Positions 50,356 to 52,424 of a stretch of DNA of 64,000 bases are shown here, piece by piece; positions within the stretch are counted from its first letter, which is position 1; each line of letters starts with the position of its first letter. The stretch is from Escherichia phage DK-13. The notes below the pieces were generated by a model. It saw nothing but the letters and a program-made list of their open reading frames with translations, was not told the DNA's origin and did no database searches. The stretch lies in the sequence record MT611523.1; one strand, given 5' to 3'. Made by a program: the position numbers and the translations under genes.

Positions 50356-50910
50356 TTAGTTCTTATAAAAGCGGAACGGATTTATATGAAAGGCGAGCAT
50401 AGCCTTAGGGATTGGTCGGGACAGAAGACTCTTGAGCTTCCAGCCACAATAAACGCGCAGATAAAAGGTGATTCCACCGACCTTGAGATAAGGAACAGAA
50501 GCAAAAACACCCCAGGCATTATCCGTCCACATAAAGAGCCATCCGTGATGAGCTTTATCCGGGGAGCCGGATTCAACATCAGGATTACCTTTATAATGGA
50601 ATTCTGAATTGCAATCACGACCGAGCTTGTGGTAAGCAAAATTGTATGCTTTGTTTCGCCAGAGCCAAGCCACTCGTTGGAAGTAAACACCTAACGGCCA
50701 TTTTCGGATTTTTGACCAACGCTCGATATGACCCCGGTCGCCATCAATCGGATTATCATAAGTCATCATCCAATCAAACCCGAACGGAAGTTTACCAGTC
50801 TTTTTATTATGGAACGGAACTACAAATGGAGCCAGGATAACGGCCAGAATCATGGAGATAAAATCCAGTGGAACTAACAGAATCCAACTCAAATATTTTA
50901 ACAGTTTCAT
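50356..50910 (-). CDS. Membrane-anchored protein (possible late gene)
   Basis: Start at MKLLKYLSW; N-terminal TM helix; Trp-rich; preceded by a TATAAATC late-promoter-like motif. Confidence 0.5.
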   Translation of the reverse strand: MKLLKYLSWILLVPLDFISMILAVILAPFVVPFHNKKTGKLPFGFDWMMTYDNPIDGDRGHIERWSKIRKWPLGVYFQRVAWLWRNKAYNFAYHKLGRDCNSEFHYKGNPDVESGSPDKAHHGWLFMWTDNAWGVFASVPYLKVGGITFYLRVYCGWKLKSLLSRPIPKAMLAFHINPFRFYKN

Positions 50911-50938
50911 ACGTTTCTCTTTAGTTGATTTATAAAAA

Positions 50939-50962
50939 AGCCCCAACCTTTCGGAAGGGGCT
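50939..50962 (-). terminator. Rho-independent terminator
   Basis: GC-rich hairpin GCCCC...GGGGC followed on the minus strand by a T-run, downstream of the gene ending at 51000. Confidence 0.55.
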
Positions 50963-50999
50963 ATACCTTGTCGGGGTTCCACCTGCAAGGCAAGTGTTC

Positions 51000-51383
51000 T
51001 TATCCGCGAGCGAATGCCATTGCAGCGCGTTCGTTGGCACGGTCAGTGATGTTCAAGAATTTATCACGAGCGATTTCGATTGGAGCACCAACCCAGTCAG
51101 CAGCACCATTACCTGGAGACTGTTTAGGGCGAACCATATAAGTTGAAACTTTGGAACCGGCTAGTTTGGCACCTGGTGCCGCGGCATTTTTAACGTCTTT
51201 AGCTTTGATGCCAAACCCAGTTACGATACCCCAAGAAACACCATTAACGGGTTTCTTGAACATAACACGGTCACCAATTGAAACACCGGCTTTTTCTGGA
51301 GCCACTAAAGAAAATTTGCCAGCTTCAGTCAGTACGGATTCGGTGATGGTATTGCGATTTAAAAATTCTGCATATGTAAGCAT
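51000..51383 (-). CDS. Internal-protein-like late protein (degenerate capsid targeting sequence)
   Basis: 127 aa; N-terminus MLTYAEFLN resembles the IP targeting sequence; exact late-promoter consensus 31 nt upstream; Ala/Gly-rich, locally GC-rich. Confidence 0.5.
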   Translation of the reverse strand: MLTYAEFLNRNTITESVLTEAGKFSLVAPEKAGVSIGDRVMFKKPVNGVSWGIVTGFGIKAKDVKNAAAPGAKLAGSKVSTYMVRPKQSPGNGAADWVGAPIEIARDKFLNITDRANERAAMAFARG

Positions 51384-51414
51384 TTTGTTTTTCCATTATT
51401 AGGGTTGTTGTTAA

Positions 51415-51422
51415 TATTTATA
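51415..51422 (-). promoter_or_regulatory. Late promoter (TATAAATA)
   Basis: Exact T4 late-promoter octamer TATAAATA on the minus strand, about 31 nt upstream of the ATG at 51383. Confidence 0.5.
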
Positions 51423-51620
51423 TTCCATAGTACCGGATGCACCATCCGCTCGGATTTCTCATACTACCGGGCGCACCGCCCGCTCTGGAAAAACTCCGTA
51501 AAAGGGTGCGCCGTTTCTGCTGTGATATAAGGGGACATCAACAAATCGTAAAGATTTATTAATGTCAGTCCTTAAACAGGGAACATCAGTCCGACGACTT
51601 ACCGGTAGCGACCCGGTTTC
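51423..51620 (-). ncRNA. Putative structured small RNA region (tandem hairpin repeats)
   Basis: GC-rich non-coding stretch next to the tRNAs; two about 34 nt direct repeats each forming a hairpin (CGGATG-CAC-CATCCG and CGGGCG-CAC-CGCCCG) with compensatory AT to GC changes; no convincing ORF. Confidence 0.3.
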
Positions 51621-51860
51621 TCATTCAATTGTAATAGCTAATTTGACTTTAACAACCTTATAATTGGAATCAAGGTCATTGAATTCCATAAAATTTGTTG
51701 CTAGTCTGCGAGTCGGGAAACTTAGATATTTATTATGTTCAGGTGGAGCAGTTAATGCAAACCATGGGACTTGTTTATCATTTTCGTCAAACTCATCAAA
51801 GCTATAAACCAGCTCGTTGCTGGTTATATCCATAACTGCATATGATTCACTAATAACCAT
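51621..51860 (-). CDS. Hypothetical protein
   Basis: Start at MVISESY to avoid overlap with tRNA-Arg; acidic. Confidence 0.4.
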   Translation of the reverse strand: MVISESYAVMDITSNELVYSFDEFDENDKQVPWFALTAPPEHNKYLSFPTRRLATNFMEFNDLDSNYKVVKVKLAITIE

Positions 51861-51875
51861 AATATCCTCAGTAAT

Positions 51876-51952
51876 TGGTCGGGGTGGTGGGATTCTAACC
51901 CACAACCTACGGTTTAGAAGACCGTTGCTCTATACAATTGAGCTACACCCCG
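51876..51952 (-). tRNA. tRNA-Arg (anticodon TCT)
   Basis: Hand-folded cloverleaf: acceptor CGGGGTG/CACCCCG, D stem GCTC/GAGC, anticodon stem ACGGT/ACCGT with loop CTTCTAA, T stem GTGGG/CCCAC, encoded CCA. Confidence 0.85.
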
Positions 51953-52028
51953 GGTGGCCCCATCCGGACTTGAACCGGAAACCTGCCAGTTATGAGCCGG
52001 ATGCTCTAACCAATTGAGCTACAGGGCC
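51953..52028 (-). tRNA. tRNA-Ile2-like (anticodon CAT; AUA-decoding after lysidine modification, or Met)
   Basis: Hand-folded cloverleaf: acceptor GGCCCTG/TGGGGCC, anticodon loop CTCATAA, T arm TCCGG-TTCAAGT-CCGGA; overall resembles E. coli tRNA-Ile2; abuts tRNA-Arg. Confidence 0.8.
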
Positions 52029-52033
52029 TAAAA

Positions 52034-52309
52034 TTAAATTACAAATCCAGCGGGAGCATTATCATCTTTAACCATATGCTGAATTGTATGATAAGTCATT
52101 TCTTCTGGTGCAACCAGATAAGCCGCCGTATTAACCAACGGGATTAATTTGACTTTATTGAATGTTGAACAACCAATTGACATAAAGGTTTCGCCTGTTG
52201 GATGCTGAATTTCTCCAAATTGACACTCGTACGAGATAGAGCAACGTTTGGTAGTGGTTGTCTTTGTTTTAGGGTCATAAAAAGCTAATTTTAATACTAA
52301 CATAAACAC
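52034..52309 (-). CDS. Hypothetical protein
   Basis: 91 aa ORF immediately upstream of the tRNAs. Confidence 0.4.
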   Translation of the reverse strand: MFMLVLKLAFYDPKTKTTTTKRCSISYECQFGEIQHPTGETFMSIGCSTFNKVKLIPLVNTAAYLVAPEEMTYHTIQHMVKDDNAPAGFVI

Positions 52310-52424
52310 CTCAAGTAAAATTAAGTAAAGTAAGTTTGATTAATAGCACATGCTATTATGAAAGATTCTTTGAGGGAAGAACCTTTGGTAATAGAGGGTA
52401 CTTATTAATAATAACGTGTTTTTG

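Follow-up and report, generated by a model that had tools for sequence, protein, structure and literature searches.

What lies between the transfer RNA (tRNA) genes of Escherichia phage DK-13 (MT611523.1) and the late gene downstream of them? The question concerns positions 51423-51620 of a 64,000-nucleotide (nt) window, the whole stretch of DNA that was analysed, whose closest relatives are the Gapriverviruses VR20, MN01, P8 and TH55 (T4-like coliphages; 98% identity). A sequence-only reading had treated this interval as a single structured non-coding element adjoining the tRNAs, had noted two direct repeats that fold into hairpins with compensatory stem changes, and had proposed a counterpart of the T4 stable RNAs or another riboregulator. 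Our analysis indicates that the interval is the junction of two elements: rnaD, a known T4 RNA (species 2 stable RNA), occupies its right part, and the edge of a cassette that carries the hairpins and a late open reading frame (ORF) occupies its left. We hold this anatomy, taken together with selection on the hairpins at the RNA level, with high confidence. Our readings of what the hairpins do are far more tentative.

The repeats and hairpins exist where the earlier reading had placed them, as confirmed by the sequence and by a repeat search. On the plus strand, a 21-nt core reads TACCGGATGCACCATCCGCTC at 51431-51451 and TACCGGGCGCACCGCCCGCTC at 51465-51485, and each copy contains a hairpin with a 6-bp stem and a 3-nt loop (CGGATG-CAC-CATCCG at 51434-51448 and CGGGCG-CAC-CGCCCG at 51468-51482). 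The CAC loop reported earlier is correct for that strand, but in the transcript the loop is GUG, since the genes around the finding all lie on the minus strand (ORF listing). The hairpin pair arose by a tandem duplication with a 34-nt period. A degenerate 21-mer with three or fewer mismatches finds just these two sites in the 64 kb, with 0.00 expected. Furthermore, the four differences within the 21-nt core amount to two Watson-Crick-compensated stem pairs, an arrangement that four substitutions would produce by random chance with a probability of 2.8e-4. The description of the region as GC-rich and without a convincing ORF was also borne out: GC content is 0.49-0.52 over 51400-51549 versus 0.32-0.42 in the adjoining 100-nt windows, and no ORF within 51384-51620 exceeds 41 amino acids (aa).

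Selection on RNA structure, deduced at first from the two copies in this genome, was supported and extended by compensatory variants among 15 orthologous loci. Hairpin A has the stem CGGGCG/CGCCCG in 6 of the 15 genomes and CGGACG/CGUCCG, changed on both sides, in the other 9 (pair 4 is G-C versus A-U). Hairpin B is CGGAUG/CAUCCG in 13 genomes and CGGGUG/CAUCCG in two (TH40 and TH44), with A-U versus G.U at pair 4. The G.U variant would be an A.C mismatch on the plus strand, and the wobble is tolerated on the sense strand only. Across the 15 genomes, one double compensatory pair accompanies two G.U changes that pair on the minus strand only, and one pair position shows the classical path from G-C through G.U to A-U. 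When the 11 distinct sequences are aligned, pairing holds in 100% of the proposed-helix cells. A score as high as the real one came up in 1 of 500 shuffles, a control that is uncorrected for relatedness and drawn from a small sample.

The hairpin block is also poor in substitutions. They affect 5 of its 70 columns versus 38 of 128 third codon positions (30%) in the adjacent 127-aa ORF (Fisher P=1.4e-4). Three of the five are stem changes and two, both in TH44, fall in the spacer between the hairpins. The loop GUG, the 5' flank GAG and the 3' flank GGUA are common to both copies in all 15 genomes. Because polymorphisms of the block are unlinked to those of the ORF, this low diversity is unlikely to stem from recent common ancestry of the block alone. 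The low-diversity block spans the hairpins and reaches into the capsid-targeting-like N-terminus of the ORF, since the first 13 codons (51343-51383) show no synonymous variation versus 30% further on (P ~0.01). We conclude from these alignments that the hairpin block is under purifying selection and that its stems form in minus-strand nucleic acid, most simply the sense RNA. At 6 bp, the stems appear too short for cruciform extrusion.

The same variants bear on whether the repeats could act as duplex DNA. The 6-3-6 inverted repeats have their centres upstream of the inferred late start (~51408), at distances of ~33 and ~67 bp, and might serve as operators for a dimeric protein controlling the late promoter. 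Their geometry is operator-like (a palindrome, in two copies 34 bp apart, beside a promoter) and their sequence is conserved. However, of the four states seen at stem positions 4 and 5, three keep the two arms complementary, and the fourth, G.T, breaks the symmetry of the DNA and keeps the RNA pairing. Duplex-DNA operators are therefore disfavoured, because symmetric complementary changes are a signature of base pairing and not of half-site recognition. Furthermore, site-specific DNA-binding regulators are not known for T4-type late promoters. This explanation seems to us scarcely credible.

The right-hand ~60% of the interval (51505-51620) is an element distinct from the hairpins, the known rnaD. 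The alignment with T4 rnaD is continuous from end to end, from AUGAGAAACCGGG to GGCGCACC, and the 5' and 3' ends are identical. When the intergenic region was used as query, 734 phage records gave matches, which are confined to 51505-51625, and 590 of the 734 cover at least 80% of the stretch. In RB68, RB3 and RB59, the matched sequence is annotated as rnaD or species II RNA. Conservation is concentrated at the ends of the RNA: the 5' ~45 nt and the 3' ~25 nt (ending GGCGCACC) are almost invariant and the central hairpin is variable. By homology, 51505-51624 is the rnaD gene and its product a predicted stable RNA; no Rfam family covers it. The T4 stable-RNA counterpart proposed earlier is thus present over 51505-51624, on the strength of alignment and annotation, but not in the hairpins, which start 22 nt past the rnaD 3' end, outside rnaD, and have no homology to rnaC or rnaD. 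The roles of T4 rnaC and rnaD are still unknown in the literature (PMC3014915, PMC9697503, PMC12685909).

The rnaD gene keeps its position in the tRNA cluster, downstream of tRNA-Arg and on the same strand, with a 79-aa ORF (ORF79) in between whose stop codon overlaps the 5' end of rnaD. The interval is therefore separated from tRNA-Arg by ORF79 and does not adjoin the tRNAs, as had been supposed. Co-processing with the tRNAs becomes less direct than proposed, with an ORF intervening between them and rnaD. A sigma-70-like promoter (TTGTTA-16-TACAAT, 51655-51628, minus strand; 9/12 matches) sits inside ORF79's 3' end, 3 nt short of the rnaD 5' end, and could supply a separate start for rnaD and for read-through into the hairpins.

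Other observations concern the history of rnaD. The 15 cassette-bearing phages have three versions of its central hairpin that are unrelated to one another, one of them nearly identical to that of phage T2 (1 mismatch). The T2-like version suggests that the central arm may have been swapped as a module between genera. In Providencia phage PSTCR6 (locus 335-610), rnaD lies directly between tRNA-Arg and tRNA-Ile, with no rnaC. In the window, the 8-mer AUGAGAAA at the rnaD 5' end (51617-51624, minus strand) recurs between the hairpins (51455-51462), and both copies are then followed by CCG...CCGGUA. This recurrence could mean that a local duplication gave rise to part of the leader, the region upstream of the 127-aa ORF, an 8-mer in 240 nt not being significant alone.

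The left part of the interval is best understood by comparison with T4 and with the Gapriverviruses RZ and TH57, in which rnaD is followed by rnaC and then by a terminator. In the window, homology ends right after GGCGCACC. It restarts directly past the stop codon of the 127-aa ORF with ACACUUGCC, the final ~25 nt of rnaC, and the same terminator follows. The alignments with the three phages place ~505 nt here in lieu of rnaC nt ~1-113, comprising the hairpins, the late promoter TATAAATA, a ribosome-binding site and the ORF. On these alignments, 51423-51504 is the first ~80 nt of a cassette that replaced most of rnaC in one Gaprivervirus lineage. The hairpins and the 127-aa ORF occur together in 15 of 15 GenBank records, and the hairpins occur in none of the other ~720 rnaD-carrying phages. 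A blastn search of phage GenBank with the leader likewise matches only the 15 cassette-bearing phages. In IMG/VR, the sole true match to the hairpin motif is VR20 itself, the 8 others being chance matches in GC-rich coding DNA, and a metagenome scan gave no locus with the right context among the matches listed.

Of the 39 variable sites in the 127-aa ORF, 38 fall at codon position 3, which marks it as a real gene. Its N-terminus (MLTYAEFLNRNTITE) resembles that of T4 IPI (MKTFKEFTSTTTPVSTITE) and the internal-protein (IP) array of the window, so the label "IP-like" given to it earlier is reasonable. The ORF forms one 90% cluster and has three remote relatives, of which P0003 and P0004 begin alike; the loci of these two were read, and no such hairpins lie upstream of either gene. 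On its T4-like contig (1100-1500), the gene for P0003 (202 aa) comes just after tRNA genes and is preceded by a true terminator and a late-like promoter, which hints that this IP-like family is repeatedly associated with tRNA clusters.

Phage JS98 (locus 505-600) has neither rnaC nt ~1-113 nor the cassette. Its rnaD is joined to ..GAACACUUGCC.. and the terminator, with the same downstream junction. Because JS98 lacks nt ~1-113, most of rnaC is apparently dispensable in nature, and the downstream junction is, by this comparison, a recurrent breakpoint. That rnaC is largely replaced in the window and deleted in JS98, with rnaD kept in both, bears on the roles of both stable RNAs.

The location of the hairpins at an insertion junction also raises the question of whether they have any present function. 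They could be relics of the illegitimate recombination behind the cassette insertion, kept perfect not by selection but by hairpin-templated (quasipalindrome) correction during replication. Templated quasipalindrome correction is a known mutational process in T4, and the GC content of the cassette is above that of its surroundings, which suggests a foreign origin. Yet the block is ~4x less variable than the adjoining synonymous sites, with unpaired loops and spacer included, and its G.U intermediates are strand-specific. The lack of linkage to the ORF polymorphisms also makes recent shared ancestry of the block alone unlikely. We consider it very improbable that the hairpins are mere relics.

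Features of the locus, listed in the sense direction of the local genes where possible (positions in the 64,000-nt window)
Feature	Position	Strand	Basis and remarks
tRNA-Met	52028-51953	minus	first in sense-direction order
tRNA-Arg	51952-51876	minus	second in sense-direction order
ORF79, tRNA-Arg/rnaD interspace	51621-51860	minus	annotated coding sequence (CDS) in MN01 and VR20; phrog_33509
Ortholog of T4 rnaD (species 2 stable RNA)	51505-51624	minus	pairwise alignment with T4 tRNA-Arg/rnaD/rnaC
Non-coding stretch, 237 nt	51620-51384	minus	from ORF79 to the 127-aa ORF
GGAG followed by a U-run	51494-51497	minus	read from sequence; 11 nt upstream of hairpin A; invariant in 15 genomes
Candidate 5' arm GUUUUUCCA	51486-51494	minus	repeat search; 9 nt just 5' of hairpin A; perfect complement to 51387-51395
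Tandem duplication, two 26-nt units, 34-nt period	51426-51451 and 51460-51485	minus	repeat search; 81% identity
Hairpin A, CGGGCG-GUG-CGCCCG	51468-51482	minus	predicted -11.4 kcal/mol
Hairpin B, CGGAUG-GUG-CAUCCG	51434-51448	minus	predicted -7.9 kcal/mol
T4-type late promoter TATAAATA	51415-51422	minus	11 nt after hairpin B, 31 nt before ATG; invariant in 15 genomes
Candidate 3' arm/Shine-Dalgarno region UGGAAAAAC	51387-51395	minus	GGA 8 nt before AUG
127-aa late ORF, cassette cargo	51000-51383	minus	15 phage records, at least 99% identity
rnaC remnant, last ~25 nt, ACACUUGCCUUGCAGGUGGAACCCC	50973-50997	minus	comparison with T4, RZ and TH57
Intrinsic terminator of the tRNA/stable-RNA unit (GCCCC..GGGGC, then U-run)	50934-50961	minus	homologous to the T4 post-rnaC terminator

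The position of the hairpins determines which RNA can carry them. Because they lie upstream of the late promoter, the late mRNA is without hairpins, and only transcripts started upstream include them. The hairpin-bearing RNA would then be read-through from the tRNA/ORF79/rnaD unit. A consensus scan of 52028-51384 on the minus strand called no intrinsic terminator; the same scan missed the homology-inferred terminator downstream of the ORF and can miss imperfect stems. The hairpins themselves were ruled out as intrinsic terminators: their sense-strand tails (GUAGUAUGAG and GUACUAUGGA) are without a U-run, no fitting U-tract is present on either strand, and neither was called by the scan. Nor does anything here support a stable RNA or a trans-acting riboregulator in the hairpins.

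Several simpler identities of the block were also rejected. A decayed tRNA was ruled out, as ARAGORN and Rfam give nothing in the leader. A small peptide (a 14-codon ORF from 51462, minus strand) was discarded with the loss of its ATG in TH44. Each repeat unit contains a TAnnnT hexamer, but no usable -35 element or MotA box could be seen by eye for a middle or sigma-70 promoter inside the repeats. Finally, the hairpins are not a general feature of late promoters, as no other late promoter in the window has an upstream hairpin.

Among functional explanations, we rank first, tentatively and with rivals that must be taken seriously, a cis-acting leader that uncouples expression of the late gene from transcription arriving from upstream. 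On read-through RNA, folding would begin with the two hairpins and bring GUUUUUCCA beside UGGAAAAAC, covering the GGA of the Shine-Dalgarno sequence. The three-helix fold would then close and damp translation before late times. The hairpins would also give the stable-RNA precursor a structured 3' boundary. Transcripts that start from TATAAATA, which lies inside the fold, would be without the 5' arm and could be freely translated. The layout of the locus is consistent with this scheme: the late promoter (51422-51415) sits between the two arms (51494-51486 and 51395-51387), whose 9-nt complement has a shuffle P=0.004. The predicted minimum free energy (MFE) fold of the isolated leader contains the long-range helix and both hairpins. 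Furthermore, the only substitution in the helix, C to U in the 3' arm of YenP8, still allows pairing as G.U. In line with this scheme, ORF79, which is also next to the tRNAs and has no late promoter, is without such hairpins.

Energetic and comparative results weigh against such uncoupling. In T4 gene e, a validated control, the cost of opening the translation start is ~16 kcal/mol on early/long transcripts versus ~4 kcal/mol on late ones, a difference of ~12. The corresponding costs at this locus are 4.1-5.0 versus 3.2 kcal/mol, a difference of 1-1.8, and the long-minus-late cost among natural variants is 1.0-3.8 versus ~12 kcal/mol for T4 e. For the long-range helix, the predicted probability spans 0.00 to 0.99 over the natural variants and is 0.04 with rnaD attached. 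Four genomes have uncompensated 1-nt homopolymer indels in one helix arm. RNAalifold favours another fold, in which the rnaD 3' tail pairs with the hairpin-B region. The sequence conservation of loops, flanks and spacer is unexplained by a masking helix or by an exonuclease barrier. All the comparative data, in addition, come from 15 closely related genomes, a small sample. Strengthening of the Shine-Dalgarno-masking helix at low temperature was ruled out in the model, where lower temperature brought no gain. The uncoupling scheme is thus attractive in layout and, in these calculations, weak in energy. Taken as a whole, the anatomy combined with a cis-acting leader is the best explanation that we can offer, and we put it forward provisionally, at rather less than an even chance. 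Should the leader indeed gate translation, the T4 strategy by which late genes are silenced when carried on early transcripts would reach to a recently gained cassette, in another architecture.

The hairpins could instead mark a boundary for decay or processing, with no translational role. The stem-loops would either block 3'->5' exonucleases or indicate where the RNA is cut, for instance at the nearby GGAG-U-run sequence. The tRNA/rnaD precursor would in this way keep a protected 3' end now that the terminator is 500 nt further downstream, and the hairpins would be the stem-loop half of a composite with the promoter. Their position exactly between the stable-RNA unit and the late promoter is consistent with such a boundary, as are predicted stem stabilities of -7.9 to -11.4 kcal/mol and the presence of GGAG and a U-run 11 nt upstream of hairpin A. 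GGAG-type sequences are the kind cleaved by T4 RegB in early transcripts (PMC3014915); the likeness here is one of sequence. At the same position downstream of the tRNAs, P0003 has a true hairpin-plus-U-run terminator before its late-like promoter. Furthermore, PeSL stem-loop/promoter composites mark indel boundaries in T4-like genomes (PMC4122927). However, both hairpins lack a U-tract, which excludes them as intrinsic terminators. A barrier needs stem stability only and would not require the observed sequence conservation of loops, flanks and spacer. JS98, without rnaC or the cassette, manages with only the rnaC 3' hairpin and the terminator, and the hairpins travel with the ORF and not with rnaD. 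A boundary function is, on balance, unlikely.

The conservation that a barrier leaves unexplained is what would be expected if something recognized the RNA. The block may be a tandem RNA operator for a phage or host protein, or a new stable RNA of ~80 nt in the place of rnaC, the latter being in essence the earlier proposal. Both sequence and structure are conserved (GUG, GAG and GGUA in both copies in the 15 genomes), and only stem pairs 4 and 5 vary. Moreover, the block stands where a known stable RNA is otherwise found, and the roles of rnaC and rnaD are themselves unknown. Against a recognition element or stable RNA, a search with the Rfam 15 covariance models over 50800-52400 passed only the two tRNAs and gave nothing in 51384-51624 at E<=10. 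Neither the window nor the collections searched contain another copy, homology to rnaC is absent, and no candidate binding protein is known. The leader fold has an unremarkable z-score of -1.4, and the block is tied to one ORFan cassette in 15 genomes only. We regard this explanation as improbable.

The fold favoured by RNAalifold points to yet another role, as a switch in rnaD processing. In the precursor, the rnaD 3' tail GGCGCACC would base-pair either with GGUGCGCC or with the region of hairpin B and direct rnaD 3' maturation. The duplex would be extended and irregular, and the leader would refold into two hairpins after cleavage. An 8-nt perfect complement links GGCGCACC (51505-51512) to GGUGCGCC (51470-51477; the loop and 3' arm of hairpin A), with a shuffle P=0.014, and T4, with an intact rnaC, has a complement of at most 5 nt. 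Natural variants (the A' genomes and TH54) are tolerated as G.U pairs, and both RNAalifold and the MFE of long transcripts choose such folds, with three wobble-preserving changes. Yet the significance is marginal and post hoc, and the C->A change of TH44 breaks the extended helix. This fold gives no account of why the stem of hairpin B is perfect or why it differs from A by compensated changes, and the heavily interrupted duplex would be a poor substrate for RNase III. We give this switch little credence.

More broadly, the hairpin block might work as an RNA partner for rnaD, in the form of a cis switch or sponge set by, or setting, rnaD processing, or else a new stable or regulatory RNA in the rnaC slot. 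Both hairpins display GGUGC(GCC), a complement of the invariant 3' tail of rnaD, taken as single-stranded in this reading. We think such a role decidedly improbable. If true, a partnership with rnaD would be the first hint of a pairing partner for a 50-year-old orphan RNA.

The anatomy of the locus also affects its annotation. In pEC-M719, YenP8 and UPEC07, plus-strand "hypothetical proteins" are annotated over the hairpins and rnaD (51437-51562 and equivalents). These CDSs look spurious, as they overlap a known RNA gene on the opposite strand. Public records left this stretch blank or gave it spurious plus-strand ORFs, and the corrected annotation comprises rnaD, a conserved leader and an IP-like late gene. 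The hairpins are also well suited to mutagenesis, being small and clean targets by virtue of their strand-specific covariation, and the phages of this group grow readily.

Comparison with known systems separates what is familiar at this locus from what is new. With the rnaD/rnaC region of T4, the window shares rnaD itself, the last ~25 nt of rnaC and the terminator (50934-50997). In contrast, the hairpin repeats are without homology to either RNA (no alignment to rnaC beyond chance) and replace rnaC nt ~1-113, and the window has ORF79 as an extra gene between tRNA-Arg and rnaD. The repeats also recall REP (repetitive extragenic palindromic) sequences and the hairpins that stabilize mRNA 3' ends in being short, GC-rich, intergenic and in tandem, with no U-tract. 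The 7-mer CCGGATG is common to the hairpins and to the E. coli REP consensus. However, the repeats are direct here and not alternating, GTAG is on the wrong side of the palindrome, and the hairpin motif has no match in 5,426 E. coli genomes.

Two T4-type arrangements are closer. Occlusion of the translation start on early transcripts has been described for T4 e, soc, 49 and I-TevI (PMC3014915). As in those genes, the late promoter is located between the arm and the complement of the Shine-Dalgarno sequence, and late transcripts would be without the 5' arm; the late gene would also lie inside an earlier unit. Unlike in those genes, the helix is long-range here (90 nt apart) and AU-rich, encloses two extra hairpins and covers the Shine-Dalgarno sequence only. 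The PeSL/PmSL composites of T4-like phages likewise combine a stem-loop with a promoter (Arbiol 2010; Comeau 2014; PMC4122927). The likeness includes stem-loops directly upstream of a promoter, a plastic region, and an ORFan-cassette boundary that differs among close relatives. However, the promoter in the window is late and not early or middle, and there are two hairpins with GUG loops. These are not dispersed but form two tandem copies in 64 kb, at one place per related genome. Because they occupy a single locus only, they cannot serve as a repeat for recombination within the genome. Thus, rnaD is already known, and the hairpin block is in no described family. The block, although its fit to either falls short in one defining feature, is nearest in logic to the occlusion of late-gene starts in T4 and to the stem-loop/promoter composites found at cassette boundaries.

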